From the NCBI GenBank assembly GCA_002305585.1, contig DBPN01000046.1:32014-80694 (forward strand): a stretch of 48,681 bases of DNA. The letters run 5' to 3'. Each line of letters opens with the position of its first letter. Position 1 is the first letter of the stretch. Of the stretch, positions 22,638-46,388 are shown one piece after another. Below the pieces are notes generated by a model. That model searched no databases, was not told the origin of the DNA, and saw only the letters and a program-made list of their open reading frames with translations. A program made the translations under genes and the position numbers. The stretch comes from Eggerthellales bacterium UBA1419. Lineage in GTDB: Bacteria; Actinomycetota; Coriobacteriia; Coriobacteriales; UBA8131.

Positions 22638-23513
22638 ATGATGAGACTACTTCTGGTCGCGAATACAGCTAATGCACTGGCGACAAATGCCCGTGATGAA
22701 GTGGACCGCTGGTTGCGTGCTCAGGGGATATCGACCACTATAGCCTCAAGCGGTGACTTTTGTCGCAAGAGTGCGGCGGTTTCGCAGTTAACCACCCAGA
22801 TAGGCAGCTATGACCTTGTCTGTGTCTTTGGCGGCGATGGCGCCATCTTGCGTACAGCCCGGATTGTCGGAGCGTCACGGGTTCCGTTGTTGGGCTTCAA
22901 TTTTGGCCACCTGGGTTTTTTGGCTGGCGCATCCGGTGATGACCCGATCTCTGCACTGCAGGCAGTCTTCGCAGGCGAGGTCGTGCATGAGCTGAGGACG
23001 GTTTTGCTCGCATGCATCGAATTTGCCGATGGCCATACGGAACAGATAACCGCCCTCAACGAGATCGTGTTAGCCAGGGGGAGCTCGGGTAGGGTCATCG
23101 ACGTCAACCTGCTCATCAACGGCGTGCACATCGCGGACATCCGTGGCGACGGAATAATGGTGGCTACGGCAACCGGGTCGACCGCGTATGCGTTATCGGC
23201 TGGTGGCCCATTGATGGCGCCCACCCATAAGGGTCTCTGTGTCGTGCCAATCGCTCCGCATACATTGGCTGCTCGTGCGATGGTGACCGCTCCAAGCGAC
23301 GTGATTGAATTACTGCCAACGGCTAAACGCGAGCAACAGATCACCGTCTTCGCTGACGGAGAGGCACTCGAGCACCCCAAGGACAATGACGCCGAGATCG
23401 TGGCAGTGAGCGTAAATCGCAACCCGGATGAGTTGCTGCTTGTTCGTTATGACGCACCAGATTTCTACACAGCAGTCTCGCAGGTCTTCTTTGGGGGCGG
23501 ATATGCTCGATGA
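22638..23513 (+). CDS. nadK: NAD+ kinase
   Basis: The motifs GGDGAILR, NEIVL and ATATGSTAYALSAGGP are present. The start is ambiguous between TTG 22635, ATG 22638 and ATG 22641, with AAGGGA at 22628-22633. Confidence 0.92.
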   Translation: MMRLLLVANTANALATNARDEVDRWLRAQGISTTIASSGDFCRKSAAVSQLTTQIGSYDLVCVFGGDGAILRTARIVGASRVPLLGFNFGHLGFLAGASGDDPISALQAVFAGEVVHELRTVLLACIEFADGHTEQITALNEIVLARGSSGRVIDVNLLINGVHIADIRGDGIMVATATGSTAYALSAGGPLMAPTHKGLCVVPIAPHTLAARAMVTAPSDVIELLPTAKREQQITVFADGEALEHPKDNDAEIVAVSVNRNPDELLLVRYDAPDFYTAVSQVFFGGGYAR

Positions 23514-25122
23514 GCTTCGGGTAAGGGATATCGCGCTCATCGAGGATGCCAGCATGGAGTTCTCACCTGGTCTCACTGTGCTTACTGGTGAGACGGGAGC
23601 CGGGAAGACAGCCCTGCTTGGCGCGCTGAAGCTGTTGATCGGTGAGCGTGGCGACAGCACCTTGGTGCGCGACACTGCTTCTGAGGCGCGGGTTGAGGCA
23701 CGGATGACCCTAGACGATAGCGAGCACATCATCTGTCGGCGAATAAGCCAGGATGGGCGATCGCGTTGTACTCTTGATGATGAAATGGTCACCGTAGGCG
23801 CACTGGCAGCACGCATCGGGCCATTCTTCGACCTGCATGGACAACACGAGCATCAATCGCTGCTCTCCCCGTCCACGCAACTGACGTATCTGGATCGTTT
23901 CATCGGCTCTGTTGCCAGTCAGGCGTTAGCGGCATACCAGCAGGCATGGCATCATCAGCATGAAGCCGAGGAACTGGTTGAGCGCATAGAGGAGCTTGCT
24001 CTGACCTCCTCGGTGAAGTTGCAGCAGGCACAAGCCGCGTTCAATGAGATCAATGCCCTCGATCCTCAACCGGGCGAGCTGGAGCAAATCGAACAGCAGC
24101 TTCCACGTCTACGCAACGGGGAGCAGTTGGCACAGGTCTCGGGTGAGGCTTTTGAGGCGTTGCGAAGTGACGACGGCGCTTTGGATAAGCTGGGAACAGC
24201 CCTGAAGGGCTTGACCCGTAGCTCAACTGTCGATGTCGAATTGGATGCACTTACCAATCGTATGGAGTCCCTGCTCATCGACTTAGAGGATCTGGCTTCT
24301 GAGTTGCGAGCTTATCGCGATGATGTCGAGTTCGACCCCGAGGCGCTTCAGCGAGCATTGGATCGATTGGGACAGCTTGAAGGGTTATGCAGACGGTATG
24401 GCCCGCGCATGGATGATGTGCTCAACACTTGGCATGAAGCCTCGGATACCATCAACCTCACCAGTGATATCGATGAGCGTCGGCAAGAGGCAAAGATAGC
24501 CTTACAGGAGGCTGAATCAACATTGAGGCAGGCTGCCGAGCACTTGGAGCAGATACGAGAGAACGGGAGCAGGGATTTCGCTGATGCAGTCAGCGCGTCT
24601 GTGCAGGACCTGGCCATGGCAGGTGCCTCTTTCGAGTTGGCTATCACCCCACTCAAGCGCGAGGACTGGACTATCAACGGGTCATGCCGCTATGAATTGC
24701 TGTATCAACCAAGTGCGAACTCTGTTCCGCGTCCGTTGGCCAGGATTGCAAGTGGGGGAGAGCTTTCGCGTGTGATGCTGGCGTTGAAGACGCTGATCGG
24801 GCAGGAGGCAGCTGCAGTAACGCTGGTCTTCGATGAGATCGATGCAGGGATAGGTGGCATAACGGCTGTCGCGGTCGCCCAACGTCTTCGCCAGCTTGCG
24901 CAGACGCATCAAGTGATCGCCGTCACACATCTTGCCCAAATCGCCGCTGTTGCCGATACCCACCTTGTGATCAGTAAGCATGTGAGTGAAGGTATGGCGC
25001 ATACTGCGTTGACTGCGGTGTTTGGCGAAGACCGTACCAGCGAGATTGCTCGGATGCTATCAGGTAGCGATGATGTCGTGGCGCTAGAGCATGCCCGACA
25101 GTTGTTATGTGAGCTGGTGTAG
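23503..25122 (+). CDS. recN: DNA repair protein RecN
   Basis: The N-terminus MLDELRVRDIALIEDA, Walker A GETGAGKT, the SMC signature SGGELSRVMLAL and Walker B LVFDEIDAG are present. The ATG at 23503 overlaps nadK by 11 nt. Confidence 0.95.
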   Translation: MLDELRVRDIALIEDASMEFSPGLTVLTGETGAGKTALLGALKLLIGERGDSTLVRDTASEARVEARMTLDDSEHIICRRISQDGRSRCTLDDEMVTVGALAARIGPFFDLHGQHEHQSLLSPSTQLTYLDRFIGSVASQALAAYQQAWHHQHEAEELVERIEELALTSSVKLQQAQAAFNEINALDPQPGELEQIEQQLPRLRNGEQLAQVSGEAFEALRSDDGALDKLGTALKGLTRSSTVDVELDALTNRMESLLIDLEDLASELRAYRDDVEFDPEALQRALDRLGQLEGLCRRYGPRMDDVLNTWHEASDTINLTSDIDERRQEAKIALQEAESTLRQAAEHLEQIRENGSRDFADAVSASVQDLAMAGASFELAITPLKREDWTINGSCRYELLYQPSANSVPRPLARIASGGELSRVMLALKTLIGQEAAAVTLVFDEIDAGIGGITAVAVAQRLRQLAQTHQVIAVTHLAQIAAVADTHLVISKHVSEGMAHTALTAVFGEDRTSEIARMLSGSDDVVALEHARQLLCELV

Positions 25123-25125
25123 ACT

Positions 25126-26247
25126 ATGACGATCAGTGGAAAAGCGCAATTAGGCAAGAAGACAAAGTTCTTGGTCCAAACCCTTACAACGTCTGACATC
25201 GCCATTATCGATCATGTGGATATCGACAGGGTGTCCGCAGAAGGTCTGGTTAGGAGCGGTGTGAAGGGTGTGGTAAATGCCGCTCAGTCGATCTCTGGGC
25301 GTTATCCGAATGTGGGACCGAAAATCCTTGTGGATGCTGGTATCGAATTGTTGGATAACGTGGGACCTGAGGTCTTCGAGGTTGTCAGCGATGGTGATAT
25401 TGTCAGTATCGTGGATAACGAGCTGGTTTGCAATAATCTGGTGATAGCCAGTGGCACGCTTCTGGATCGGACGCAGATCGAACTGAGGATGCAAGCCGCA
25501 GAGCGCATGCTCGATCAGCAGATGGAGAAATTCGTCCAGAATACCATCGAGTACCTGGAGCGGGAGAAAGTCAGCCTGATCTATGATCCCTGGGTTCCGC
25601 CCGTACGGACGCCGATTAGAGGACGGCAGGTATTGGTTGTGGTGCGTGGTTACGAATACCTTCAGGATTTAAGAACCCTGACGCCGTATATCCGTGAGAT
25701 CAAGCCGGTGTTGATAGGCGTCGATGGAGGGGCCGATGCCCTGCTCGAGGCGGGTTTCAAACCAGATATCATCATCGGCGATATGGACTCTGTGACAGAT
25801 GCAGCGCTGAAGTCGGGCGCCGAGGTCATCCCACACGCCTATGAGGACGGGACCTGTCCCTCGCAGACACGTTTGGAAAAGCTGGGCGTGATGGCTTCGC
25901 CATGGCGGCTTGCGGCAACCAGCGAGGATCTCGCGTTGCTTCTCGCTTGGGAGAAGAAGGCAGATCTGATAGTGGCCTTGGGTACTCATTCCAATCTTGT
26001 GGAATACCTGGACAAGGGAAGGGCAGGAATGGCATCATCCTTCCTGGTGCGGCTTAAAGTTGGTACCAAGCTCGTGGATGCCAAGGGTGTGAGCAAATTG
26101 TATCGAGCCTCAGCTCCGCCTCGACATATACTGCTGGTAGTTTTGGCTGCGTTCTTGGTGGTTGTCTCAGTGATTGCTATCTCAGAGCCGCTTCGCAATA
26201 TCTTCACCGTGATGTGGTTGAATATCCGAACACACCTCGGTTTGTGA
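25126..26247 (+). CDS. steA: SteA-like putative cytokinetic/cell-separation protein (thiamine-pyrophosphokinase-like domain plus C-terminal TM)
   Basis: The sequences DIAIIDHVDIDRVSAEGLV and GVDGGADALLEAGFKPDIIIGDMDS and a C-terminal TM helix fit the family. The position after recN matches other actinobacteria. Confidence 0.8.
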   Translation: MTISGKAQLGKKTKFLVQTLTTSDIAIIDHVDIDRVSAEGLVRSGVKGVVNAAQSISGRYPNVGPKILVDAGIELLDNVGPEVFEVVSDGDIVSIVDNELVCNNLVIASGTLLDRTQIELRMQAAERMLDQQMEKFVQNTIEYLEREKVSLIYDPWVPPVRTPIRGRQVLVVVRGYEYLQDLRTLTPYIREIKPVLIGVDGGADALLEAGFKPDIIIGDMDSVTDAALKSGAEVIPHAYEDGTCPSQTRLEKLGVMASPWRLAATSEDLALLLAWEKKADLIVALGTHSNLVEYLDKGRAGMASSFLVRLKVGTKLVDAKGVSKLYRASAPPRHILLVVLAAFLVVVSVIAISEPLRNIFTVMWLNIRTHLGL

Positions 26248-26329: not shown

Positions 26330-27625
26330 ATGTACAACCTCAGATACCATCTGGTGACGATCTGTTCGATTTTCCTGGCACTGGCCATAGGGTTGTTGCT
26401 TGGCGCTGCGATTGCCGGAAGCGATCTGGTGCGAGATACATCACAGGGTTTGGTTGATTCTCTCCTTGAGGAGTTCAACGATATAACCCAGGAGAATAAC
26501 GAGCTTACAAAACAGATAGAAGTCGAACGACCTTTGACGCAACAGCTGCTTGGTTATTGGCAGGATGGACAATTGGTTGATCGAACGGTTGTGGTTTTAA
26601 GCGGTGACTCGGCTTCTGATACCGAGCTCTCGCAGCAGACGAGCCAGATGATCTCAGACAGTGGCGGCGTGCCGGTGACCATAACGGTCAAGGTTCCGGA
26701 GTTCGGTCTTACAGATGCGACGATAACGGAATCGTTGCAGCAGGTTATACCTGTGGTTGATGGCGAACCTTATACCACGACGATTGGCAAGGCTCTGGTT
26801 GATGAATGGACCTACGATGGCCTGCTGGCCGCGGTAGCAACAGAGCAGAATGGTTCCTCTGCTGAAGGATCGACAGCCGACGAATCCAACGCGTCTGGAT
26901 CCACAACAAGCAGCTCCACGACAAACGGATCATCGACGAACGCATCATCTGTCCCAGACGTGGATACAGAGGAGCTGCCAACCATAACCAAGCGCCTAAT
27001 CCTCGGTTTCCCTCTCACGTCAAAACTGGTTGACTTGGATTGCATCACTATCACTGTGGATTATAAGAGCTTCATCGCAGCTAACAGCGATAAGATGACA
27101 ACAAGACAGAAGCAGACATGGACCGAAGCCGATGAAGACGGTCTGCCATACGCGGTAAACGGTCTGGTCAACCTGTTGACTGTTTCCAATGATGAGAACA
27201 GCGCCAGCATCGCCGACCCGGTTGGACTGCAGATTACGCGTTATATCGACAACCTTGGCACTGCTGGGGATCTGCCTGTCTATCAATGGAAGACAACGAC
27301 TGATGCCAACGCAATGGAAGGCGGCGATGATCAGTCATCTGCGGGGGAGGCAGCGACAGGGATACTCGATCAGATCGGCGATGGTGAAGTCACTGCTAGT
27401 GATGACGTTGACCCAACGACGTTAGGCCGCTATGCAGTGTTGGCGCAGGTGAAGGGGCGAGCGAACAGTTTCATCGATGCTGCGACTCAGATGGGTTTGT
27501 CCTGCGTCACCACTCTGGATGATGCTTCTGGTGAATACAGTCTAGTCGCATTGCTGTCCGGTGCACGCAAGGGTATCTACGGATCAGATAGACCAGCCGA
27601 CGCACATTTCCCGACTTTGCCCTAA
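26330..27625 (+). CDS. SteB / MctB-like 'copper transporter' family (DUF3186) membrane-anchored protein
   Basis: The N-terminus MYNLRYHLVTICSIFLALAIGLLLGAAI is the family's hallmark, and the gene sits directly after steA. It contains a Ser/Thr-rich low-complexity insert at 26849-26950. Confidence 0.7.
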   Translation: MYNLRYHLVTICSIFLALAIGLLLGAAIAGSDLVRDTSQGLVDSLLEEFNDITQENNELTKQIEVERPLTQQLLGYWQDGQLVDRTVVVLSGDSASDTELSQQTSQMISDSGGVPVTITVKVPEFGLTDATITESLQQVIPVVDGEPYTTTIGKALVDEWTYDGLLAAVATEQNGSSAEGSTADESNASGSTTSSSTTNGSSTNASSVPDVDTEELPTITKRLILGFPLTSKLVDLDCITITVDYKSFIAANSDKMTTRQKQTWTEADEDGLPYAVNGLVNLLTVSNDENSASIADPVGLQITRYIDNLGTAGDLPVYQWKTTTDANAMEGGDDQSSAGEAATGILDQIGDGEVTASDDVDPTTLGRYAVLAQVKGRANSFIDAATQMGLSCVTTLDDASGEYSLVALLSGARKGIYGSDRPADAHFPTLP

Positions 27626-27630
27626 TCGGG

Positions 27631-28353
27631 TCATCGTCCCGATCTGCCCAGATCCCTGATGGCTTTCTTGACATCCAGGAATTGTTTTCCTCTGTGGATG
27701 AAGCCGGCGAGATCCCTGCCGGTAGCTCGATGATGCATCTCAACGGGTACTTCAAGTACGGTGAAGCCACAGCGTAGTGCCCTGATGGTCATCGCCACTT
27801 CCACGCCGTAGCGATCAGCGAAGGGTCGAAGTTGCCTGAAGCACGACCAGGTTATCGCTCTCTGCCCGCTCAACGGAGCTTGGGCGTTATAACCGCCACC
27901 CAATCGCCTGATAGCCTCACGAGCGGTGTTCACAACCAGTCCGAAACCGGCTTTTTGCTGCGAAGCAGGGAATACCGCGACACTCATATCGGCCTGACCC
28001 AGCAGGACTGGCTCGAGCAGATCCGCTGCCGCTTTAGCGCTGCTGCCCACATCGGCATCTAAGAGCAACAGGATATCGCTTTCGCAAAGAGCCGGTCTTG
28101 AGGGTAGAGGCTGCTCCAGTGTCCGCGCAAGTAGCTCAAAGGCTGCTCCCTTCCCCCTGTTGCCTTTCCCGCTTATCACCATGGCATCAGCTTTGTCGGC
28201 TAATGCCGCTGTGTCGTCAGTCGAGCCGTCATCGATGACCAGCACCTCTGTCACATGGGGCAATGCCCTCGCCGTCAGCACCGTCTCGGTGATGGTCTCA
28301 GCTTCATTGTAGGCCGGTATGCAGACGAGCACCGCCACGTTATCGACCCCCAT
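27631..28353 (-). CDS. Soluble GT-A fold glycosyltransferase (family 2-like)
   Basis: The motifs VLVCIPAYNE, VIDDGSTDDT and LLLDAD (DxD) are present, and I see no TM segment. The start is ambiguous between GTG 28338 (GGGGG 8-10 nt upstream, immediately after the murJ stop), ATG 28353 (14-nt overlap) and ATG 28395 (56-nt overlap). Confidence 0.8.
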   Translation of the reverse strand: MGVDNVAVLVCIPAYNEAETITETVLTARALPHVTEVLVIDDGSTDDTAALADKADAMVISGKGNRGKGAAFELLARTLEQPLPSRPALCESDILLLLDADVGSSAKAAADLLEPVLLGQADMSVAVFPASQQKAGFGLVVNTAREAIRRLGGGYNAQAPLSGQRAITWSCFRQLRPFADRYGVEVAMTIRALRCGFTVLEVPVEMHHRATGRDLAGFIHRGKQFLDVKKAIRDLGRSGR

Positions 28354-31300
28354 TGGATCTATGCAGACGCCTACCGATCCGTGATAACAGGTCATTGAGT
28401 ACTCTGACTTCGGGAATCTTGAGCATCCGGCAGATCAGATAATAGATTCCAAGCCCGGCAGACCCGCAGACGATGATCACGATCAAAGAGACAGCTATGT
28501 TGTCGTTAAAACCGCTGCGCGCGAAAACCGTTGGGAATATGGCTGCAACAGCAGATGCCGCGAATATCTTGGCGCCATCCTTGAATATCGCCTCGAGTCC
28601 AAAGGAGCCGATCTGACCTTGCAACACGCGATTCATCACCAAAAACAGCAGACAGTAAGTGATGATGTCAGCGACTGGTATACCTATTAGTCCGATACCA
28701 TCCCAGAGCCCGAAGCCGGTAGTGAAGAAACCATAGAGCAACGCTTGGAAGACGCGTCCTACCGCATCGATCTTGATGAAGAGCTTCAGATCCCTCAGTG
28801 AGCTGAAGGCGCGATAGAGATACATGTAACCAGAATAGAAGGGCAGTGCGAAGCACCAGACACTGAGCACCTGCGCAACATTCATGACATCTTGATAGTT
28901 GAATTGACCGGCATGGTAGAGTCCTGCTAGCTGATGGGAGAGCGCGAAGAGCAGCAGGGCCATAGGTGTGATAAGGAAGATAGTCGTGCGCAAACCCCGG
29001 CTGACATTCGTCTTAAAACCCTGCCAGTCCTCCGCCGCCGAGGCCGCGCTCATCTCGGTGAACAGTGTAGTAGATAAGGCAACTCCTATCACTCCGTATG
29101 GCAGTTGGTACCAAAGCCAGGCGAAGCTGAGGGTGGAAGGGCCATTGTCAGCTACGGCAAGCGAGAATGAATTCATAAAAGCTACTACCAGTAGATTCAT
29201 GATGATGAAGATGGTTGCCGGCAGTGCTATCCGCACCGTCTCCCGTAAGGCAGGATCCTTGAGGTTAACCTTGAAACGCAGGGGGATATTAAGCTTGAGG
29301 AAGGCCGGAATCTGGATTACGAGCATGGCGACTACACCGAGCGTGGTGCCTACAGCCAGCCAGATCATCCCTGCAAGCAGGTTGACGCTGGAGATGAAGG
29401 GGAAGCCGAGAAAGGTGATGATCACCACGATATTATTGAATACCGGCGCAAGCGCCGACCAGAAGAAGATGCGATGGGCATTGAGTAGGCCGCTGAGAAT
29501 CGCGCCTACTCCATAGAACACCGCCTGTATGGCGAAGAAACGGAAGAAGAACACGGCGATCTCGATCTGCTCGGTCTGATCTTGGGTCATGAATGTCTGG
29601 GTCCAGATGACCTGAGGAGCGAATATCGTAGCCAGCAGGGAGACCGCGCCTAGTGTGATCAATGCGATACCCAACAGATTCGAAGCGTAATCGGCTGCCC
29701 CTTGTTTACCCCGTTTCTCACGCTGTGCTAGATACAGCGGCAGGAAAGCGGTGGTTAGCACGCCACCGGCAACGAGCTCGTAGAGCATATTGGGCAGGTT
29801 ATTGGAGATATAGTAGGCAGAGGAGAACAGCGTATTACCTAAAGCGAAGGCAAAGGCCATCGTGCGCAGGAAACCAGTGGCACGCGACAACAACGTCACC
29901 GTGGCAAATGTCGCGGTGGAGCGCCCTACAGAAGGCTGGGGATCGCCATCTGAGTTGTCCTCGACGGGAAAGTTTGTCTCTTCGATGAGCGGGACTACAT
30001 CCGTCAAATCGGTTGGCATCGTTATCGGCTTCACATCCTCTAATAGTACAGTATCCAGCGATTCCATCGGATCAACGCTGTTGGCGATCGAAGGATGGCC
30101 ATTTCTCCGGTCGTTTCTCTGCAGATCGCTGAGTGATAGATCGACGCTACCACGAAGCTCTTCGCGCAATCTCCAACTATGCAGATCGCAGATCAACCAG
30201 ACGAAACAGGACATCATGTAGATAAGGTAGACCGACGGGGTTAGTATGCCCGAATCCTCTATGAACAGTGTGATTGCAACGATGATCAGACCCGTGGTGA
30301 ACGCAGCTCTGAAGCCGACATTGCGCTGCCAGAACTGTTCATATGGCCCCGGTGCGGCCAATCTGAGGAAAGCCATCAGTGCCACCACGACCGCGATGAA
30401 GACCAATGCAGGCCATGGCGCATATGAGAGCGTAGTGTTCAACGAAACCTGCCAAGCTTCGAATACCATGTCATGCAACAGTACGGCTAGACCCTGTTTG
30501 GCAGAAGGTATTATCCAGCGCATGTGCGAGAGCGGGTTGTAGAGCAAATCAAGGTACAGAACACCAAGGGCCAGCAGTATGGGGATACCGATAGCCAGCA
30601 GTACCACGCGCAAGGTGACCGGTCGCTCGTTGATCAGCCACCAGATGTAGAAGGTTCCGGTTAATGCCCAGACAATCGGGCCAAAACTGGAACCGAACAT
30701 CGGCAGGCAACTGATGAGGAGCAGTGAAAATGAGACGAGTAGGAAGATCCAGCGTTTGAATGGAGCGATCAGGCGATGCGTGGGGAAACGATTGACAAGC
30801 AATCCGGATAACGTGAACCAGGCGCCATAGAGCATAGCCGCGGGTTCATTGCCCAGACCATCGAACCGCGAGCCCTCCAAGATATCGTAGGTGATGTAGC
30901 CTACATGTGTCCAGAGACCGCCGAGTAGTTGATCGATCACTACAACCAGGACAGTGAGTGCGAAGAGGAAGGTCAGCGAGTGTATCCAGCGGGTCTGCCT
31001 ACCTATCAACAAGGCGATGAGTACGATTGCTCCTGCCCATACGGCACAATCCAGCATTAGCAGAAGAGGATCGGATATGCTTGGCAGTGTGAGGTGCATA
31101 AGGAAGGTTGCAGGCGGATACGACAGGATGATGAGCCAGAGGATCCTGACCAGCGGAATGAGGAAGTCCAAGGTCTTTCGGTTGAGTTTGAAGTGCAGGA
31201 AGATCAGGAAGATCGAGATGACGAATGTGAAGAAAGTCAGGACGAGGAAGGCGATGTTGATGGCCGGCTTGGTAGATCGGAAGTCATCGCAGAGCGCTCT

Positions 31301-31969
31301 GTCCCTGATCAGAGTGGCAAGCCTGTCATCTGCAGCGTCATCTGTCGCATGGCTTGTGATCGTGGCTACACTGTAATCTGGTGAATCAGGTAGATAATTA
31401 ATGTGGCGGACGAGGGCAGATACATCCCGAGTGGTTACCAGACGCGGATGATCGGTGGTGTCGGAGCTGAGGTATCCCTCATAACCTTGGCCGTGGATGA
31501 TAATCGGCGAATAGGTCTGCGGTGCCCATTCGTTGCGGAAGTTCTTCGAGCCAGCCACGATAAGCAGACTCCTGGGATCCATGGTGTCCAAGAGATAGCC
31601 AACAGTTGCATCGTATTGCGCGAGCTTCAGGCTATAGGGCTGCAGATATGTGGTGACATAGGGATCCTTCTCCAGATCATCGATCACCCAGGCATTATTG
31701 GAGATCAGATTCCCTGACGCTGAATCCGCCACCAACTGGTAGAGGTATGGCGTAGACTCAACATTAATCTGGTCCCAGTATAAATAGGGGACATACAGCA
31801 AGATGATCGGTACTGGGTCATCAACCGGGAATAATTCCATGGCAGGTTGCTCAGCTGCCGGGGCATCATCCGATTCAAGAGCAAGCGCGGCTGGGCTTGC
31901 GGCAACTTGCGCCATGATCAGGCACAGGATAACCACGCGGAGCACGAAATGCTTGAGTCGCTTCATCAC
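28340..31969 (-). CDS. murJ: Lipid II flippase MurJ (MOP superfamily) fused to a ~680-aa N-terminal ectodomain plus 11-TM module of unknown function
   Basis: Residues ~682-1209 (nt 29926-28343) look like MurJ: LLSRATGFLRTMAFAFALG, LPNMLYELVAGGVLTTAFLPLY and 14 predicted TM segments. Residues 1-681 comprise a signal anchor, a ~205-aa ectodomain, ~11 TM helices and an acidic linker. Confidence 0.85.
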   Translation of the reverse strand: MMKRLKHFVLRVVILCLIMAQVAASPAALALESDDAPAAEQPAMELFPVDDPVPIILLYVPYLYWDQINVESTPYLYQLVADSASGNLISNNAWVIDDLEKDPYVTTYLQPYSLKLAQYDATVGYLLDTMDPRSLLIVAGSKNFRNEWAPQTYSPIIIHGQGYEGYLSSDTTDHPRLVTTRDVSALVRHINYLPDSPDYSVATITSHATDDAADDRLATLIRDRALCDDFRSTKPAINIAFLVLTFFTFVISIFLIFLHFKLNRKTLDFLIPLVRILWLIILSYPPATFLMHLTLPSISDPLLLMLDCAVWAGAIVLIALLIGRQTRWIHSLTFLFALTVLVVVIDQLLGGLWTHVGYITYDILEGSRFDGLGNEPAAMLYGAWFTLSGLLVNRFPTHRLIAPFKRWIFLLVSFSLLLISCLPMFGSSFGPIVWALTGTFYIWWLINERPVTLRVVLLAIGIPILLALGVLYLDLLYNPLSHMRWIIPSAKQGLAVLLHDMVFEAWQVSLNTTLSYAPWPALVFIAVVVALMAFLRLAAPGPYEQFWQRNVGFRAAFTTGLIIVAITLFIEDSGILTPSVYLIYMMSCFVWLICDLHSWRLREELRGSVDLSLSDLQRNDRRNGHPSIANSVDPMESLDTVLLEDVKPITMPTDLTDVVPLIEETNFPVEDNSDGDPQPSVGRSTATFATVTLLSRATGFLRTMAFAFALGNTLFSSAYYISNNLPNMLYELVAGGVLTTAFLPLYLAQREKRGKQGAADYASNLLGIALITLGAVSLLATIFAPQVIWTQTFMTQDQTEQIEIAVFFFRFFAIQAVFYGVGAILSGLLNAHRIFFWSALAPVFNNIVVIITFLGFPFISSVNLLAGMIWLAVGTTLGVVAMLVIQIPAFLKLNIPLRFKVNLKDPALRETVRIALPATIFIIMNLLVVAFMNSFSLAVADNGPSTLSFAWLWYQLPYGVIGVALSTTLFTEMSAASAAEDWQGFKTNVSRGLRTTIFLITPMALLLFALSHQLAGLYHAGQFNYQDVMNVAQVLSVWCFALPFYSGYMYLYRAFSSLRDLKLFIKIDAVGRVFQALLYGFFTTGFGLWDGIGLIGIPVADIITYCLLFLVMNRVLQGQIGSFGLEAIFKDGAKIFAASAVAAIFPTVFARSGFNDNIAVSLIVIIVCGSAGLGIYYLICRMLKIPEVRVLNDLLSRIGRRLHRSNGGR

Positions 31970-32202
31970 ACCTGTTCTCTATTACACTGGCAGACATCTT
32001 CTTGTGATGATAACCATGTCTGTAAGGGGAAATCGGTTCTTTTTGACAATGGTACTGCACTTCACTGGTATTGAGAACCGCTCTTGAGCACAATACAGAC
32101 GATTAACTTCCCTGTCATTCACAACACGAACAGTGAAGTATTCAGGTAAACTGGGACAAGACGGTTTTTCCTAGGCCGTTTGCTGAAAGGAAGCTTAAAT
32201 CT

Positions 32203-33219
32203 GTGATCAGCATCGTGTCGGCACTTGTGTTCTGTGTGGTTGTCCCCGTTGCGGTGATGACCATGTTAGCCCCCTCACTTCAAAGAACCTCACCCAGAGT
32301 CGCGAACTTCCGCGATGCTAAGGTCTATAGTGGTCTTGGCATCGTATGGTTTGTCTGGCTGGTCTTCTTTTGGGTGGGCGCGCATCTGCTGGGCGCCCTA
32401 CGCATCGCCCAACCGGCCTGGGTTAGCTATCTTGTGCCGCTGTTCCCCCTGATTGCCGGGTCGTGTGCCTTTGGGCTGTTCGATGATTGGGTAGGTAATC
32501 ATCAGGCGAAAGGTTTCAGTGGCCATCTTAAGGCCCTGTTCAAAGGCGAGTTGACCACTGGTGGATTGAAATTCATCGGTATCGGTTTCCTGAGCCTATT
32601 CACCGCGGTCTCCCTATACTGGAATGGTATCGGTTCGACTCTGCAGGTTGTTCTGGTTACCTGTGTAATAGCGCTTTCGGCCAATCTGATGAATCTCTTC
32701 GATCTCAGACCCGGAAGAGCCGGTAAGATGTATTTACTGGGATTGACAGTGGCGTTGGTGACGGTGGGGATCTCCTCATCGGTGAATCTGGGCGGATTCG
32801 ACCTCGCGGCTTTGGGGTTGGCTGCATTGGGACCGCTACTGGCAACTTGGCGCTTTGATATCGGCGAGCAGGGTATGCTCGGTGATGCCGGAGCGAACTC
32901 GATGGGTGCCTTCCTGGGTTACCTGTTCGCAACAGCGCTACCCCTATGGGCACTGGTCATCTTCACGATAGTGCTGTTCGCGGTGAATATGCTCAGCGAT
33001 AAGGTCTCCTTCTCGGCGCTTGTTGACCGCAGCAGTCTGCTCACGGCCTTCGACCAATGGGGACGGAGTGAGGCTGTGCCACAACAGATTGTCCCAAGTG
33101 CTGCCGAGCGGGAAAACAGAGATGAAATAGCTGATGGACAGATATCTGAAAACCATTCTATTGAACTTGGGGTAGAATCCCCTGATGGTATTGATGAAGA
33201 CAGGAACAATCGAGAGTAG
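32203..33219 (+). CDS. MraY/WecA-family (GT4, PF00953-like) polyprenyl-phosphate sugar-phosphate transferase, divergent
   Basis: The protein is polytopic, with FDDW, NLMNLFDLRPGRAG and MLGDAGANSMGAFLG motifs. The start is a GTG with AAAGGAAG upstream. The gene is divergent from murJ and ends 18 nt upstream of pyrG. Confidence 0.75.
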   Translation: MISIVSALVFCVVVPVAVMTMLAPSLQRTSPRVANFRDAKVYSGLGIVWFVWLVFFWVGAHLLGALRIAQPAWVSYLVPLFPLIAGSCAFGLFDDWVGNHQAKGFSGHLKALFKGELTTGGLKFIGIGFLSLFTAVSLYWNGIGSTLQVVLVTCVIALSANLMNLFDLRPGRAGKMYLLGLTVALVTVGISSSVNLGGFDLAALGLAALGPLLATWRFDIGEQGMLGDAGANSMGAFLGYLFATALPLWALVIFTIVLFAVNMLSDKVSFSALVDRSSLLTAFDQWGRSEAVPQQIVPSAAERENRDEIADGQISENHSIELGVESPDGIDEDRNNRE

Positions 33220-34857
<1,638 letters not shown>

Positions 34858-34969
34858 GACAGCAACGCCAGATAAACACCTCAACGGCGCACAGACTTAT
34901 CGAATTGGTTGCCCGACCACTACAGCAACAGGCTGGCAGCCGACTTGGATAGTAGAGAGGGAACACGTG

Positions 34970-36079
34970 ATGATCAATCCGCAAAGACTTCTGACGACCT
35001 TCCTGGATCTGGTGCGAATCGATAGTCCCAGCGGTCATGAGGCTGCTGTCGCGCACTATTGTTGTGAAGCGCTTGAGGCTGCAGGCTGTGCGGTTGCGAT
35101 TGATGATACCACTGCGACAACTGGTTCAGACACCGGCAATCTGATTGCTGAACTTACTGGTGAAGCAGCGGGAAAGCTGTATTTCTCGGCACATATGGAC
35201 ACAGTGAGCCCCGGCGAGGGTATCAAGCCGCTTGTTGAAGCTGGGATTATACGGGCATCCGGCGACACGATACTCGGCGCTGACGACAAGGTTGGCATCG
35301 CCGCGATCATCGAGATGGTACGCGTGTTGCGGGAGAACGAGCTGTCGCACCCAACAATAGGTATACTGTTCAGTGTTGGTGAGGAGAAGAACCTCCGCGG
35401 TGCCAACGCGATGGATGCCACCATGTTCCACGGAGAGCCCTGTTTCGTCCTTGATTCGGAGAATCAGCCGGGTGAAGTGGTGGTAGGAGCTCCGTATCAC
35501 AACTCTTTCATAGCGACGTTCAGGGGTAAGGCGGCACACGCTGGTGTCTGCCCGGAGAAAGGCATCTCTGCCATCGCACTTGCGGCCGCGGCGATCAACG
35601 CGATGCAACTTGGACGTCTGGACGAGGTGACAACCGCCAACATCGGCACGATAGCCGGCGGTAGCGCAGATAACATCGTAGCTGACAGCTGTGTGGTCAC
35701 CGGTGAGTTCCGTTCATTGCACGAACAGCGTCTCAACGAGGTTGGTGAGATGATCTCTGCTGCTATTGAGAGCGCTGTAACGGGAACAGCGGGTGGTGTC
35801 GATGTTATCTGGGAGAAAGGCTATCCGGGATTCCTATTAGATGAGAGTCATCCCGTGGTGCAATTAGCGTTGAAGGCGGCCGAGAGGATCGGTCTGCCCG
35901 CGCGAGTCGCGGTAACTGGAGGTGGGTCGGATACCAATGTCTTCTCGGATAAAGGCCTGCAAGCGGTGACTTTGGGTACCGGTATGAAGGAGATCCACGG
36001 TTTGGGTGAGTGCCTGGCGGTTGACGATCTTGAGTCGTTGACCCAGCTGATAATCCAGATCGTCTTAGATTATCGTTGA
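34970..36079 (+). CDS. M20/M25/M40 metallopeptidase, PepT-like
   Basis: The motifs LDLVRIDSPSGHE, AHMDTV, GADDKVGIAA and SVGEE are present. I prefer the start at ATG 34970 or GTG 34967, with GAGAGGGA upstream. The ORF-track start at 34754 lies inside pyrG. Confidence 0.8.
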   Translation: MINPQRLLTTFLDLVRIDSPSGHEAAVAHYCCEALEAAGCAVAIDDTTATTGSDTGNLIAELTGEAAGKLYFSAHMDTVSPGEGIKPLVEAGIIRASGDTILGADDKVGIAAIIEMVRVLRENELSHPTIGILFSVGEEKNLRGANAMDATMFHGEPCFVLDSENQPGEVVVGAPYHNSFIATFRGKAAHAGVCPEKGISAIALAAAAINAMQLGRLDEVTTANIGTIAGGSADNIVADSCVVTGEFRSLHEQRLNEVGEMISAAIESAVTGTAGGVDVIWEKGYPGFLLDESHPVVQLALKAAERIGLPARVAVTGGGSDTNVFSDKGLQAVTLGTGMKEIHGLGECLAVDDLESLTQLIIQIVLDYR

Positions 36080-36094
36080 TAGGGACTGGGGAAG

Positions 36095-37291
36095 ATGCGT
36101 CTGGTTAAGGCTAGAGTCCTGCAGGTAACTGATCAGACCGCCGATCTGCAGAGGTTGGTGGTCCGTTACGAGGATGCGCGCGGGCATAAGGTCGAAGGTA
36201 GGGCGTTGAGCTACCTTCAGATTACCGAGGCCTGTCATGTCGATGACATGGTGCTGCTGAATGCCACCGCTGTTGACCTTAGTCTGGGCACCGGCGGAGT
36301 GCTGTTCGTGGTCGCCTTGATCCCAACAGATGTCGCGACAGCGCCAGAAGTTGCAGAGCCTGCACTGCGGAATCGATCGTCGCACCCGCAGGAAGCAGAT
36401 GCCAAGCAGCAGTTGGCCTCTTGTACCGTGTTCGACGATCCCGCCCCTGAAGGCGGTCATATCATCAAATTGCGTTATACCCCGATGCAGCGCGATGTGC
36501 TGTCAGTGGAGGAACCGGCATCACCCTACCATCAACAGCTGCGCGAGCTTCGCTCCTTGGCAGGGAAGCCGGTTGTCTGTTGCGAACTGCACAGCCAGGT
36601 ACCTCTGGTGGCAGCTGCAGTGAGAAGCGTTGCTCCTCATGCAAGGATAACATACTGTCAAACCGATCAGGCAGCCCTGATGTTGGCTTTCTCAAACAGC
36701 ATCCGCGCAGCCAAGGAAAGTGGTCTTATCGACGCTACCATAAGTTGCGGCCAGGCACTTGGAGGCGACTTTGAAGCTGTGACCCTGCATTCAGGTTTGT
36801 TGGCAGCAGCCGAGATCACTAAGGCGGATGTCATCATCGTTGGTATTGGTCCGGGTATCGTTGGCACCGATACAGCCTTTGGTCATGGTGGTGTTGCCCA
36901 GGGTGAGGCCCTTAACGCCGTAGGTAGCCTTGCGGGAACGGCCATCGCTGCATTGCGATTATCCTTCGCCGATCAACGAGCAAGACATCGTGGTGTGAGT
37001 CATCACAGTATCTGTGCCCTCAGTGATATCTGCCTCATTGAAGCCTACATCCCCGTGCCTTCGAATCTTCCCATCGACCAAAGGGCGATTATCGACCGGG
37101 CGTTGGCGCAAAAGGGGATTGCCAAAAGACATAGGCTCACGGAGGTTGCCGTAGATGAGCAAAGCATCGATCTGTGCGGTCTTGAAGTGACTACCATGGG
37201 ACGCGATCAAAGTGAGGATCCGGCGTTCTTCTCGGCCGCTTACGCTGCTGGTGTCTTGGCCGGCGGTCTGTGCAACAAGAATGCAAGATGA
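36095..37291 (+). CDS. Conserved hypothetical protein, possibly DUF3866 family
   Basis: The 398-aa product has no TM segment. It contains an N-terminal beta-rich segment ending in GTGG, then HIIKLRYTPMQ and IIVGIGPGIVGTDTAFGHGG. The family name is recalled from memory and unverified. Its stop overlaps the xerD start (ATGA). Confidence 0.45.
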   Translation: MRLVKARVLQVTDQTADLQRLVVRYEDARGHKVEGRALSYLQITEACHVDDMVLLNATAVDLSLGTGGVLFVVALIPTDVATAPEVAEPALRNRSSHPQEADAKQQLASCTVFDDPAPEGGHIIKLRYTPMQRDVLSVEEPASPYHQQLRELRSLAGKPVVCCELHSQVPLVAAAVRSVAPHARITYCQTDQAALMLAFSNSIRAAKESGLIDATISCGQALGGDFEAVTLHSGLLAAAEITKADVIIVGIGPGIVGTDTAFGHGGVAQGEALNAVGSLAGTAIAALRLSFADQRARHRGVSHHSICALSDICLIEAYIPVPSNLPIDQRAIIDRALAQKGIAKRHRLTEVAVDEQSIDLCGLEVTTMGRDQSEDPAFFSAAYAAGVLAGGLCNKNAR

Positions 37292-38530: not shown

Positions 38531-38965
38531 ATGAGAGTTTTCCGCGGCTTCGCCCAACATACGTTGGATGCCAAGGGACGAGTCTCATTGCCCGCCAAAT
38601 ACCGCAAGGTGCTTCCTGAGAATCTTGTGATAGTCCGCTCGCTCGATGATGACTATCGGTCGTTGAGTGTCTTTACTGAGGAAGCTTTCGAGAATTGGCT
38701 CGATTCCCTGTTCGCCCGGGAAGGCGGCTACGACAGTAATGATCTGCATCACGTTGACAAGATGTCCAAATTCCTTGATAAGGCGCAGGATGTCGAGGTC
38801 GATAAAGCGGGCAGGATCAATATCCCCGTTAACCTCCGCGACTATGCCTCTATGGATAAAGACGTGGTCATCGTTGGTGCTAACGACCACATCAAGATCT
38901 GGGATGCCGATACCTATCGAGCATACGATGAGTATCGGGATGCCAACAGCGTCAGTCGACGCTGA
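38531..38965 (+). CDS. mraZ: Transcriptional regulator MraZ
   Basis: The sequence FRGFAQHTLDAKGRVSLPAKYR, a second DKAGRINIP repeat (two SpoVT/AbrB-like halves) and AGGAGGG at 38521-38527 support the call. Confidence 0.95.
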   Translation: MRVFRGFAQHTLDAKGRVSLPAKYRKVLPENLVIVRSLDDDYRSLSVFTEEAFENWLDSLFAREGGYDSNDLHHVDKMSKFLDKAQDVEVDKAGRINIPVNLRDYASMDKDVVIVGANDHIKIWDADTYRAYDEYRDANSVSRR

Positions 38966-38971
38966 CAGAGC

Positions 38972-39949
38972 ATGGGAAGCCGCGACTTGAAAACGGAATA
39001 TCGGCACATACCCGTCCTACTCCATGAGTGCAGGGAGAACCTGGCTCTGAAGGCAGGGGAGACCTATTGTGATTGCACATTGGGTGGAGCAGGACACGCG
39101 ATTGAACTGGCCCATGATATCGAACCCGGTGGGATGCTGATAGGCATCGATCAGGACGAGATGGCCCACAGGGCGGCAGCTGAACGCATGGAGGCAGAGA
39201 TGCCCGATGTGAGGTTCCTACCATTAAGGGGCAACTTCGCACAGCTCGATGAGCTGTTGCTTGCTGCGAAGATACCTGGAGTGGACGCCTTTCTTTTCGA
39301 CTTGGGAGTCAGTTCGCCGCAATTAGACATATCCTCAAGGGGTTTCTCCTACGCACAGGACGCCCCATTGGATATGCGGATGGATCCAGGCAAACAAAAC
39401 CTTACTGCAGCAGAGATCATCAATACCTCAACCGAAGCAGATCTCACCTGGATACTCCGCACATACGGCGAGGAGAAATGGGCTCCACGCATCGCCCAGT
39501 TCATCATCCGTCAGCGCCAGATCGCGCCGGTGACCACCACTACACAGCTTGTTGAGCTGATCAGGGCTGCGATTCCGCAGGGAGCCAGAAAGACTCGGGG
39601 GAACCCTGCGAAACGCACATTCCAGGCACTGAGGATCAAGGTCAACGCTGAGTTGGACGCTCTGGAATCGGGATTAGATGCGGCTATCCGCTGGTTGAAT
39701 CCTGGCGGGAGAATCGCGGTGATCAGCTATCACTCCTTAGAGGATCGGATAGTAAAGGAGAAGTTCGCACAGCTGGCAAAGGGGTGTGTATGTCCACCAG
39801 AGGCACCTTTCTGTGTCTGTGGGCATGAGCCGATACTCACTATTAAGACCAAGCGGCCTTTGGTTGCGGATGAAGAGGAGATCGAGAGAAATCCTCGCAG
39901 CAAGAGCGCAAAACTGAGAGTTGCCCAAAAGACAGATATCGCACGATGA
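38972..39949 (+). CDS. rsmH: 16S rRNA (cytosine1402-N4)-methyltransferase
   Basis: The motifs HIPVLLHE, DCTLGGAGH, DLGVSSPQLD and SYHSLEDR are present. Confidence 0.96.
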   Translation: MGSRDLKTEYRHIPVLLHECRENLALKAGETYCDCTLGGAGHAIELAHDIEPGGMLIGIDQDEMAHRAAAERMEAEMPDVRFLPLRGNFAQLDELLLAAKIPGVDAFLFDLGVSSPQLDISSRGFSYAQDAPLDMRMDPGKQNLTAAEIINTSTEADLTWILRTYGEEKWAPRIAQFIIRQRQIAPVTTTTQLVELIRAAIPQGARKTRGNPAKRTFQALRIKVNAELDALESGLDAAIRWLNPGGRIAVISYHSLEDRIVKEKFAQLAKGCVCPPEAPFCVCGHEPILTIKTKRPLVADEEEIERNPRSKSAKLRVAQKTDIAR

Positions 39950-39979
39950 AACAAAGCTTAAACGGAGCAGGAAACATAG

Positions 39980-40390
39980 ATGGCACAGGCAGCAAGGGCA
40001 TATAGGGGTCAATATCAAACCCAGTGGCAGGAGGCCCCTGACCGGTCTCCACGCTTTACCGTGGTGCCAGGGAAAGCTCGTGACGCCGCCAGTCAACAGG
40101 CACTTTCGCCTCAGGCGCTCTTCCTGTTCAAGATGGTTATAGCGATGGTTGTGTTCGTGTCGCTCGTGGCAGGACTGCGCGTCTGGATAACCACAGCAAC
40201 CATACAGCAACTCATCGATTCACAGAACATCACTCAGTCCATAACTGAAGCCCGTGCCGCAGGCATGGAGCTGGAGGTAAGGTACTCGGTACTGGCAAAT
40301 CCCAATCGTATACAGGAAGTCGCCTCAGAACAACTGGGGATGTCGCCTGCATCGCAGGTAGCCTACCTTGATGCCACTGTAGAAGAGTAA
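39980..40390 (+). CDS. ftsL: FtsL-like bitopic cell division protein
   Basis: The call rests on position between rsmH and ftsI, a single TM (LFLFKMVIAMVVFVSLVAGL) and a following helical region. It is based on context and architecture, not sequence motifs. Confidence 0.55.
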   Translation: MAQAARAYRGQYQTQWQEAPDRSPRFTVVPGKARDAASQQALSPQALFLFKMVIAMVVFVSLVAGLRVWITTATIQQLIDSQNITQSITEARAAGMELEVRYSVLANPNRIQEVASEQLGMSPASQVAYLDATVEE

Positions 40391-40396
40391 TCTGCC

Positions 40397-42214: not shown

Positions 42215-42302
42215 CTTGGTAATTAATCTGGTTGGCTATTTGCTTAAGGATCAATGATGCTATTCTCTGCTAGTTTGAGTAAAAGTGAGGATTTTGGAAT
42301 AT

Positions 42303-45343: not shown

Positions 45344-46386
45344 GATTGCAGGCATATCCGACCTTCCAGGTCTTCCTTTCCATCTTCATCTCCATGGCCT
45401 TGACTATGATCCTGTTACCGATGTGGATTCGCCTGCTCAAGGTGCGGCAGATCGGTCAACAGATTCGTGCCGATGGTCCCCAGCGTCACAAGGTCAAGCA
45501 GGGTACGCCGACGATGGGTGGCGTCATCATCCTGATAGCGGTACTGGTGACCGTGGCGCTACTTGGACGCACTGCCCCAATCTCGGACATACTGCCTTTA
45601 CTGTTGGTATCCATCGTTACCTTCCTCACAGGGCTGATGGGTTTAGTCGACGACCTCTCAAAGGTTGTCAAGGAACGTTCACTCGGCTTGAGGCCAAACG
45701 CCAAGATGGCCTGTCTGACGCTGATCTCGGTGTTCTTCTGCCTGGCTGCAGTCAACCTGGTCCATATCGAACCGGTGATCGATATCCCTTTCCTTGCGAC
45801 TATCGACTTGGGTGTATTCACTTCGGTTATCGACTTCGGAGACCTTCAACTTGAGATACCGTGGCTCTATCTGCTCTTTGTCTTCCTGTTGATGGCGGGA
45901 TTGTCTAATGCCGTCAACCTTACGGATGGATTGGACGGACTTGCCGGCGGCACTGTGATGATCGCTATGGTGGTGATGGCTGCGATCGCCTACCGCGATG
46001 ACCAGCTCAACCTCGCTTTGTTCGCAGCGGCAGTAACGGGGGCCTGCGTCGGTTTCCTTTGGTTCAACGCCCATCCGGCGGGGATCTTCATGGGAGACAC
46101 CGGCTCTTTGGCCTTGGGCGCGGCGTTTGCGGCACTGGCAGTGCTGACCAAGACCGAGGTGGTGTCACTGGTTGTTGGCGGCATCTTTGTGATGGAGGCG
46201 CTTAGCGTTATCATCCAGGTGGCATATTTCAAACTCACCGGCAAACGGGTATTCCTCATGGCACCGTTCCATCATCACTTCGAGCAGAAAGGCTGGTCAG
46301 AGACCAAAGTGGTCATCCGCTTCTGGATTATCACCGCCTTACTGGCCTGCATCGGTTTCGCCTTGTTCTTCAGTCAGAGCGTTTAG
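45337..46386 (+). CDS. mraY: Phospho-N-acetylmuramoyl-pentapeptide transferase
   Basis: The motifs KQGTPTMGG, NAVNLTDGLDGLAGG (45907-45951), GDTGSLALG and PFHHHFE are present. The TTG start overlaps murF by 7 nt. The alternative ATG at 45394 would truncate TM1. Confidence 0.95.
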   Translation: MLGLQAYPTFQVFLSIFISMALTMILLPMWIRLLKVRQIGQQIRADGPQRHKVKQGTPTMGGVIILIAVLVTVALLGRTAPISDILPLLLVSIVTFLTGLMGLVDDLSKVVKERSLGLRPNAKMACLTLISVFFCLAAVNLVHIEPVIDIPFLATIDLGVFTSVIDFGDLQLEIPWLYLLFVFLLMAGLSNAVNLTDGLDGLAGGTVMIAMVVMAAIAYRDDQLNLALFAAAVTGACVGFLWFNAHPAGIFMGDTGSLALGAAFAALAVLTKTEVVSLVVGGIFVMEALSVIIQVAYFKLTGKRVFLMAPFHHHFEQKGWSETKVVIRFWIITALLACIGFALFFSQSV

Positions 46387-46388
46387 GA

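Follow-up and report, generated by a model that had tools for sequence, protein, structure and literature searches.

Why do envelope genes stand between the cell-separation genes steA-steB (steAB) and pyrG, and what might they make? These questions are raised by a 48,681-nucleotide stretch of DNA, here called the window, from contig DBPN01000046.1 of Eggerthellales bacterium UBA1419. Between steB and pyrG, the window encodes a family 2 glycosyltransferase (GT2) and a protein of 1209 amino acids on one strand, and a divergent membrane protein, X, on the other. The long protein ends in a MurJ-type MOP flippase domain and begins with a region that we call Ndom. The three open reading frames (ORFs) have the strands and coordinates described in a first-pass annotation of the same DNA (Table 1), and the gaps that it gave, of 5 bp between steB and the end of GT2 (27626-27630) and of 18 bp between X and pyrG (33220-33237), are exact. 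We hold with moderate confidence that this interval is the Coriobacteriia form of an ancient module of four families, found beside steAB across a large part of the Actinomycetota as well as in certain spore-forming Bacillota. Judging from its components, the module most likely builds and exports a lipid-linked glycan that would be coupled to SteAB.

Synteny downstream of steAB

Loci were collected by scanning one genome per species with a SteA alignment and retaining the best 80 loci, those most similar to the SteA of Coriobacteriia. They were mapped with phmmer, hmmsearch and jackhmmer, and genes were counted where the sequence continued for at least 9 kb beyond steA, as it did in 51 loci. 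Sampled taxa include many families of Actinomycetes (Micromonospora, Actinomadura, Kribbella, Glycomyces), Acidimicrobiia-like and basal Actinomycetota metagenome-assembled genomes (MAGs), and spore-forming Bacillota. X was found after steA in 47 of the 51 loci and a murJ homologue in 42, with pyrG present in 33 and Ndom in 23; the soluble glycosyltransferase was a GT-B family 4 enzyme (GT4, PF00534) in 35 loci and a GT2 in 12. Thus X and murJ recur after steAB elsewhere, whereas the soluble GT2 does not recur throughout, its position being taken in Actinomycetes by the GT-B enzyme. For X and murJ, this is the outcome that the first-pass annotation had named as refuting an insertion.

Gene order varies with the lineage. 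In Micromonospora, steA-steB-X-murJ-GT4-Ndom-pyrG lie on a single strand, and basal Actinomycetota MAGs have steA-steB-GT2-X-pyrG. In the Bacillota (Thermoanaerobacterium, Thermoanaerobacterales and other MAGs) the order is spoIVB-spo0A-steA-steB-GT2-X, in agreement with the position of steAB downstream of spo0A in Clostridia (PMC12977500). GT2 and X have the same orientation as steAB both in basal Actinomycetota and in Bacillota. Two orders occur in the Coriobacteriia: steB-GT2(-)-murJ(-)-Ndom(+)-X(+)-pyrG, and a shorter one that has just GT2(-)-X(+).

Because X recurs after steAB across Actinomycetota and Bacillota, and murJ in most of the sampled loci, the module is, as part of the explanation preferred here, probably ancestral at the steAB site, old and widely conserved. 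The arrangement in the window is a local inversion within the Coriobacteriia combined with a fusion, and the inversion explains the strand difference. In Mycobacterium tuberculosis, Rv1697 and Rv1698 are adjacent (PMC12977500). That mctB abuts pyrG in mycobacteria is most readily explained if the module was lost there secondarily. Other breaks are closer to the window: in two termite-gut MAGs with the closest SteA (L007 and L008), steAB is followed by unrelated genes (an AAA ATPase and an MFS transporter), and a locus from the same metagenome as L007 (L003) carries GT2-(Ndom~MurJ)-X-pyrG, where ~ marks a fusion, apart from steAB. The steAB link was broken secondarily in L007 and L008, and the module remains with pyrG when synteny breaks, as in L003. 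Ndom lies inside the steAB-pyrG interval in every Ndom locus with steA, and adjoins pyrG in L003.

The GC content is 0.52-0.545 across the module and about 0.54 in its surroundings, showing no deviation. The repeats around the module are short chance matches, all of 26 nt or less, the window contains no tRNA, and its scan against Rfam gave no match. The sole recombinase gene is the housekeeping xerD, 4 kb from the module. The first-pass annotation had stated that no integrase, repeat or tRNA flanks the module, and none was found; its view that the arrangement is old, and not a recent island, also holds, given the conserved synteny. A mobile element is ruled out on the same grounds of tRNA, repeats, flanking integrase and GC content.

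Two further arrangements were seen. In L017 (12147-14620) the order is steB-GT2(-)-murJ(-)-pyrG, X and Ndom not being detected in that locus. L004 (7536-11005), a locus without steAB or pyrG, carries GT2(-), an unannotated protein of 410 amino acids (+) and X(+).

Fold and family assignments of the four components

The X of the window gave no match against Pfam, NCBIfam and PDB sequences even at E <= 10, and nothing useful came from either the single sequence or a profile. With the hidden Markov model (HMM) of PF00953, the X of the window was again without a match and weak matches appeared in merely two of 33 close relatives, while two distant orthologues scored 34.6 bits (L036) and 26.4 bits (L066) with a cutoff of 27. 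A word-indexed search recovered about 960 homologues, and an exhaustive profile search found 2,734 representatives of 50%-identity clusters at E <= 1e-3, 954 of them at E <= 1e-30.

An AlphaFold (AF2) model of X, built from 33 homologues, reached a predicted local distance difference test score (pLDDT) of 88.9 and a predicted template-modelling score (pTM) of 0.84. The best 35 matches of this model in a Foldseek search of the PDB were all MraY or human GPT/DPAGT1, the first 34 at probability 1.0, with TM-scores of about 0.5 and E down to 1e-4; beyond these 35 the probability was below 0.2, which is noise. The predicted structure has the MraY/GPT membrane fold, and by this model X is a PNPT-fold protein. 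When an HMM of 79 members of the X family was aligned with the MraY encoded in the window, three core motifs were in register: GLyDDl with GLVDDL, ANlvNLlDlRPgRA with SNAVNLTDGLDGLA, and mLGDaGANalGa with FMGDTGSLALGA. The hhalign comparison of the X alignment with this MraY is weak (E 0.055), yet the motifs are in register, and a broader HMM gave the same alignment.

In MraY, the DDD residues act in catalysis, N190 and D193 lie next to the uridine, and further residues form the uracil pocket (PMC6606608). X has the complete catalytic Asp triad: D94, D95 and D228 correspond to MraY D117, D118 and D265, and are kept in 78, 79 and 79 of the 79 sequences, which come from two phyla. The equivalents of N190 and D193, N164 and D167, are conserved in 78-79 of 79, and the positions conserved in at least 90% of the sequences include D94, D95, N161, N164, D167, R169, P170, R172, K175 and D228. 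The uracil-pocket residues G194-L195-D196 of MraY are replaced by L168-R169-P170 (R169 and P170 in 79 of 79, L168 in 74). More broadly, the motif tail L168-R169-P170-G171-R172 stands for the G-L-D-G-L of MraY; R172 is invariant (79 of 79), as is K175. Of the NxxNxxDGxDGL motif, X retains N161, N164 and D167 and has the remainder substituted, including the second Asp of DGxDG. The His-rich loop E that follows transmembrane helix 9 (HHH in MraY, HIHH in WecA) is absent from X, the alignment stopping at about MraY residue 289. The C-terminus carries another conserved motif, SE.VSFS...L..D.LGR, with no conserved His, and the conserved core of residues 1-290 is followed by a low-complexity tail.

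Judging from these residues, X is probably still catalytic, with an altered donor-binding site. With MraY, WecA and GPT it shares the predicted fold, the DDD motif and the N190/D193 equivalents, and the expected initiating role on polyprenyl phosphate. It differs from them in the L-R-P in place of G-L-D, the extra invariant R172 and K175, the lack of loop E, the shorter core (about 290 amino acids) and the lack of a Pfam or NCBIfam match. The X family is tied to steAB, whereas the MraY/WecA/GPT family belongs to dcw or to O-antigen and teichoic acid loci, and a normal MraY is encoded in the organism besides X. The X clade is not described in a published phylogeny of MraY-like families. The first-pass description of X as an MraY/WecA-type transferase is therefore sustained by the fold model and the motif alignment, but not by any sequence-family match.

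The fusion protein had been described as a giant MurJ fusion. MurJ is indeed its C-terminal part, whereas the N-terminal 680 or so residues, Ndom, are a distinct family without a match in Pfam or NCBIfam, which forms a separate gene in relatives. That gene encodes about 770-850 amino acids in L001, L010-L016, Micromonospora and others; in the other Coriobacteriia (L001, L010-L016) the product has about 770 residues and the gene stands, on the plus strand, between murJ(-) and X(+). A word-indexed search yielded 9 and later 17 homologues, and the wider family was recovered by jackhmmer alone, run on the fetched loci, which gave homologues in about 30 further loci. Carriers include Micromonospora, Actinoplanes, Glycomyces, Cryptosporangium, Geodermatophilaceae and Blastococcus. 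Fusions of Ndom to MurJ occur in one Coriobacteriales clade (P0121 and P0131-P0135, of 1174-1284 amino acids, and L003, of 1461 amino acids as called in an ORF of 1485 codons). The fusion is real, because metatranscriptome contigs span the junction between Ndom and MurJ without indels.

An AF2 model of Ndom (pLDDT 78) has a signal anchor, an alpha/beta ectodomain of about 170 amino acids and about 11 membrane helices. The conserved loop motif R368-x2-G-x-G-N-E, together with D474 and H482, suggests an active or binding site. In Foldseek, no PDB fold matched Ndom significantly; the best was RodA (E 0.2), which was not used as evidence for a RodA-like polymerase, and the periplasmic domain of YejM appeared with probability 0.8 and E 0.4-0.7. 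A profile of Ndom gave marginal matches only among PDB sequences, 15 of the 19, including the best, being enzymes of the alkaline-phosphatase superfamily (iPGM, E 0.01; NPP, 0.09; sulfatases, 0.45-3.5), and the consensus 'APGL.W.DVD...TP.LW' lacks the usual metal-binding Asp. The ectodomain is probably a degenerate alkaline-phosphatase-like domain. LtaS, EptA and YejM (PbgA) likewise combine a polytopic membrane domain with an extracytoplasmic domain of this superfamily, which in Ndom is read from the marginal matches; in Ndom, however, the ectodomain comes first, there are about 11 membrane helices and not 5, and other residues seem to occupy the metal-binding and nucleophile positions of the consensus.

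The GT2 protein scores 60.8 bits with PF00535 (cutoff 23.3) and carries the DxD motif as DAD in 'LLLLDADVG', which places it in GT-A family 2. It has no membrane helices and is predicted to be soluble. It reached no NCBIfam equivalog, AglJ being the best at 82.7 bits with a cutoff of 325, and its similarities to GpgS, AglJ, PpgS and ArnC are weak and all below cutoffs. The X-adjacent GT2 orthologues of Bacillota and basal Actinomycetota match the GT2 of the window at E 1e-40 to 1e-53, and a Bacillota copy (E 5e-53) is as near to it as are other Coriobacteriia copies.

By their sequences, natural fusions tie all four parts together: Ndom to MurJ, GT2 to X, and GT2 to Ndom. In the GT2~X fusion (P0264), the two parts match the corresponding proteins of the window at E 2e-55 (GT2) and E 1e-37 (X). 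In the GT2~Ndom fusion (P0128), the GT2 part is 45% identical to the GT2 of the window, and its locus (L086) has the order steA-steB-murJ-(GT2~Ndom)-X-pyrG. Metatranscriptome contigs from anaerobic digesters cover every gene of the module at a depth similar to that of steA and pyrG, and one of them (run X24, 32643-33938) crosses the junction of X and pyrG.

A candidate pathway and its alternatives

Taking the assigned folds and families together with the conserved gene order and the fusions, we infer the following steps. At the cytoplasmic face, X would transfer a phospho-sugar or a related phospho-group to polyprenyl phosphate; because its uracil pocket is rebuilt with two invariant arginines, the donor is probably not a standard UDP-HexNAc. 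GT2, or GT4 in Actinomycetes, would add the second sugar residue, and the MurJ-type MOP flippase would export the lipid-linked product. Outside the membrane, Ndom would polymerise, modify or ligate the exported unit, as a polymerase, ligase or phosphotransferase. The proposal in the first-pass annotation of a self-contained set for a polyprenyl-linked glycan, made of a PNPT-fold initiator, a second glycosyltransferase and a MOP flippase, is supported in this way, but its three-component reading was incomplete, as a fourth component, Ndom, is present and fused to MurJ.

The module follows the logic of known polyprenyl-linked glycan assembly, but its X is not an orthologue of MraY or WecA, its Ndom matches no described family, its glycosyltransferase has different folds in different lineages, and its constant companion in the genome is steAB. 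In the lipid II pathway (MraY-MurG-MurJ-SEDS/PBP), too, a PNPT enzyme starts, a glycosyltransferase acts in the cytoplasm, a flippase of the MurJ type follows and a polytopic protein works outside the membrane, and both sets are encoded near division genes. The module differs from it in that its glycosyltransferase is a GT2 or GT4 and not the GT28 MurG, in that no Mur ligases are associated with it, and in that Ndom is not a SEDS protein, given a RodA match as poor as that above. The linkage unit of wall glycopolymers (WecA/TagO followed by WbbL, a GT2, or TagA) is likewise a short lipid-linked unit of Gram-positives, made by a PNPT enzyme and then a soluble glycosyltransferase, and the first-pass annotation had named it as an alternative. 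X, however, is not a WecA/TagO orthologue, since TIGR02380 misses it and matches the MraY of the window, and the module locus has no LCP ligase, TagGH-type ABC exporter or polymer synthase, its fixed partner being steAB. Mycobacterial MviN (Rv3910), which carries a C-terminal pseudokinase and an extracellular domain, is also an actinobacterial MurJ with a large extra module in one polypeptide; in the window, the added region precedes MurJ, is itself a membrane protein and has a gene of its own in relatives.

The steA product is a cytokinetic-ring protein with a TPK-like nucleotide pocket, and SteA has been reported to have a conserved UDP/GDP-binding pocket whose ligand was not identified (PMC12977500). 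The fixed partnership with steAB and the pocket of SteA suggest, rather than show, a coupling to septal cell-wall remodelling. More tentatively, and as less than an even prospect, we propose that SteAB, known from work on Mycobacteriales alone as an activator of the septal hydrolase RipA/RipC, was ancestrally half of a larger system. The other half would be a dedicated lipid II-like pathway (X, the glycosyltransferase, the MurJ paralogue and Ndom) that makes an unrecognised septal or wall glycan or a lipid-linked signal, X using a non-UDP donor. Its nucleotide by-product or lipid intermediate would be the ligand of the SteA pocket, which would couple envelope synthesis to the separation of daughter cells, and this half would have been lost in mycobacteria and corynebacteria. 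In two SteAB articles (PMC6705760, PMC12977500), a term search found no mention of a neighbouring transferase or MurJ, and a literature search for SCO1777-1779 was without result.

Several points weigh against the proposed pathway and its tie to SteAB. The soluble glycosyltransferase changes fold between lineages, from GT2 to GT4, and Ndom is without a significant structural or sequence match. X, without loop E and the uracil-pocket residues, might be no nucleotide-sugar transferase at all. In Bacillota and some Coriobacteriia, GT2 and X are present with neither murJ nor Ndom, so that the four parts are not an obligate unit, and synteny in a housekeeping region (dxs to xerD) can persist without a functional link to SteAB. 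The metatranscriptome contigs are unstranded and possibly include DNA, and Mycobacterium, Corynebacterium, Streptomyces and Bifidobacterium lie outside the 80-locus sample.

The alternative that survives best, possible though not probable, is that the MurJ domain is the housekeeping lipid II flippase, and that X, GT2 and Ndom act on peptidoglycan precursors (for example modified lipid I or II, or a wall-linked polymer of the septum) or are neighbours by synteny only. The domain aligns with Escherichia coli MurJ over about 400 amino acids (E 1e-24) and scores 243.3 bits with the TIGR01695 equivalog, above its cutoff of 235.55, as does the L001 copy with 280 bits. It keeps R18 and R24 of the cationic triad of the central cavity (R18-R24-R270, plus R52), the dcw cluster is some 5 kb away, and no second MOP flippase was found within the 48.7-kb window, a count that applies to the window and not to the whole genome. 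However, the locus murJ is absent from some Coriobacteriia (L002/L009 and L005) and from every sampled Bacillota locus in which GT2 and X are kept, and the copies at Actinomycetes loci score just 165 and 140 bits, well under the cutoff. In addition, MurJ is fused to Ndom here and co-varies with it, and GT2 is fused to Ndom elsewhere, which argues for one pathway. The positions of R52 and R270, occupied by Y and L in the window, are non-basic in all 29 locus MurJs by sequence alignment, which is not decisive for the triad. This sign of a non-canonical MurJ is weakened, and the missing R270 is not disqualifying, since the cationic triad of Staphylococcus aureus and monoderm MurJ sits at other sequence positions (bioRxiv 10.64898/2026.06.21.733627).

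It is unlikely that GT2 is instead a polyprenyl-phosphate sugar synthase (like DPM1, GtrB, AglJ or PpgS) whose lipid-monophosphate sugar is flipped and then used by Ndom, a GT-C-like extracytoplasmic glycosyltransferase, in a three-component glycosylation system from which X stands separate. The best NCBIfam matches of GT2 are AglJ, PpgS, a dolichyl-phosphate hexose transferase and ArnC, and ArnC is also among its PDB matches; Ndom is large and polytopic, its predicted outer loops contain conserved acidic, basic and His residues, and the GT2~Ndom fusion exists. These GT2 matches are, however, far under their cutoffs, the best PDB match is the soluble GpgS, and GT2 has no membrane helices, while Ndom found no GT-C fold match in Foldseek. 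A GT-B family 4 enzyme stands in for GT2 in Actinomycetes, and that class is not known to be used in polyprenyl-phosphate sugar synthesis. The GT2~X fusion, moreover, points to consecutive steps on one carrier.

We consider it quite unlikely that X is an inactive or regulatory relative of MraY, such as a sensor of carrier lipid or precursor that informs SteAB. The replaced uracil-pocket residues, the lost second Asp of DGxDG and the absent loop E would fit such a role, as would the tight linkage to steAB, with its pocket for a cytoplasmic ligand. Eukaryotic GPT, however, lacks the DGxDG aspartates and is active. The three catalytic Asp and the equivalents of N190 and D193 (roles as in PMC6606608) are kept in 78-79 of 79 sequences from two phyla, which speaks for a catalytic X. 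So does its constant co-occurrence and fusion with a glycosyltransferase.

Finally, the claim in the first-pass annotation that a three-gene glycan module was anciently inserted into an ancestral steB-pyrG junction in this lineage is very improbable, for although M. tuberculosis has pyrG, which we take to be Rv1699, directly after Rv1698 (mctB/steB), and GT2 and MurJ are on the strand opposite to their neighbours in the window, the comparison of loci has X after steAB in 47 of 51 across both phyla and murJ in 42, both basal Actinomycetota and Bacillota carry GT2 and X in the orientation of steAB, the site is marked by no tRNA, repeat or shift in GC content, and a local inversion within the Coriobacteriia accounts for the strand difference.

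The four-family module beside steAB is, then, more general than a lineage-specific island, with a product and a physiological role that we infer. SteAB currently attracts attention in work on actinobacterial cell division and antibiotic tolerance. In most sampled Actinomycetota and in spore-forming Bacillota, a member of an MraY-like family of about 2,700 clusters, invisible to Pfam, comes after steAB, usually together with a glycosyltransferase, a flippase of the MurJ type and a membrane protein of about 800 amino acids that lacks annotation, parts that are repeatedly fused. The module is a concrete candidate for an uncharacterised envelope glycan pathway, possibly one that provides the input signal of SteAB. 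Annotation pipelines may give MurJ paralogues of this kind the name 'lipid II flippase' with no evidence for it, and the rebuilt nucleotide pocket of this PNPT subfamily bears on the specificity of MraY inhibitors.

Gene map and neighbouring genes

Table 1. Features of the window, with positions counted from its first nucleotide
Feature	Position	Strand	Remarks
GT2 ORF	27631-28395	-	254 aa; PF00535, E 2e-16
Ndom~MurJ fusion ORF	28340-31969	-	1209 aa; MurJ match at aa 682-1190 (TIGR01695)
MurJ-type MOP flippase domain	28340-29929	-	aa 681-1209 of the fusion protein
Acidic Ndom-MurJ linker, low confidence	29930-30094	-	aa ~626-680; pLDDT <50 at 625-683
Ndom	30095-31969	-	signal anchor, ectodomain and membrane-helix bundle, fused to MurJ
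Divergent intergenic region	31970-32202		233 bp, between the Ndom~MurJ-GT2 unit (-) and X-pyrG (+)
ORF X	32203-33219	+	338 aa; divergent membrane protein, predicted PNPT (MraY/WecA/GPT) fold
steA	25126-26247	+	NF040608, 468 bits (cutoff 150); also PF12555, PF04263
steB / MctB-like	26330-27625	+	431 aa; PF11382, 73.5 bits (cutoff 25.6)
pyrG (CTP synthase)	33238-34857	+	NF003792, 838 bits; conserved neighbour downstream of X
recN, longest ORF	23428-25122
PepT-like peptidase, longest ORF	34754-36079
DUF3866 gene	36095-37291
Start of dcw cluster	38531-47840		contains canonical mraY
Canonical mraY	45337-46386		TIGR00445, 300 bits
YceG/MltG-like gene	7241-8509		further cell-wall gene of the window

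Upstream of the module the order is dxs-tlyA-nadK-recN-steA-steB, and downstream it is pyrG, a PepT-like M20 peptidase, DUF3866, xerD and mraZ-rsmH-ftsL-PBP-murE-murF-mraY-murD. steA and steB are adjacent and each exceeds its family HMM cutoff, which identifies them as the SteA/SteB cell-separation pair. The fusion probably starts at the ATG at 31966, and the true start of GT2 is probably M15 at 28353. Because the M15 start overlaps the murJ stop, murJ and GT2 probably form one operon. In the divergent intergenic region, the start of X is preceded by a ribosome-binding site, GAAAGGAAG, and the search for promoters there gave a single weak minus-strand site, no more than expected from shuffled sequence.

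The steB product has 431 amino acids, compared with about 280-335 in relatives. The extra length is a low-complexity insert rich in Ser, Thr, Asn and Gly, SSAEGSTADESNASGSTTSSSTTNGSSTNASS, at residues ~165-215 of the extracytoplasmic part, possibly a glycosylated linker. For both the PepT-like peptidase and recN, the longest ORF runs about 100 bp into the preceding gene; since their family alignments start at residues 78 and 26, respectively, the true starts are probably further downstream.

DUF3866 shares the neighbourhood in both phyla, in the window as well as in L040 (14251-15318), L058 and L066 (16369-17451), and may be a further gene associated with the module. It follows pyrG and pepT in Coriobacteriia and basal Actinomycetota, and Thermoanaerobacterales carry steA-steB-GT2-X-(L,D-transpeptidase)-DUF3866. 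In L040, of the Thermoanaerobacterales, the gene directly after X (13529-14227) encodes a YkuD L,D-transpeptidase with a PG_binding_1 domain, which hints at a connection with peptidoglycan.

One metatranscriptome contig of run X24 omits 166 nt inside pyrG (33485-33652) and has loose ends nearby, which suggests a strain variant or an assembly join and not a biological deletion. Sequence near-identical to the module (27600-33300; 80-86% of sampled words) occurs in many metagenomes from anaerobic digesters, bioreactors, activated sludge and wastewater, which indicates that these are the habitat of the organism. The match reached 98% of sampled words in one run from 2013 that carries a single-organism label.

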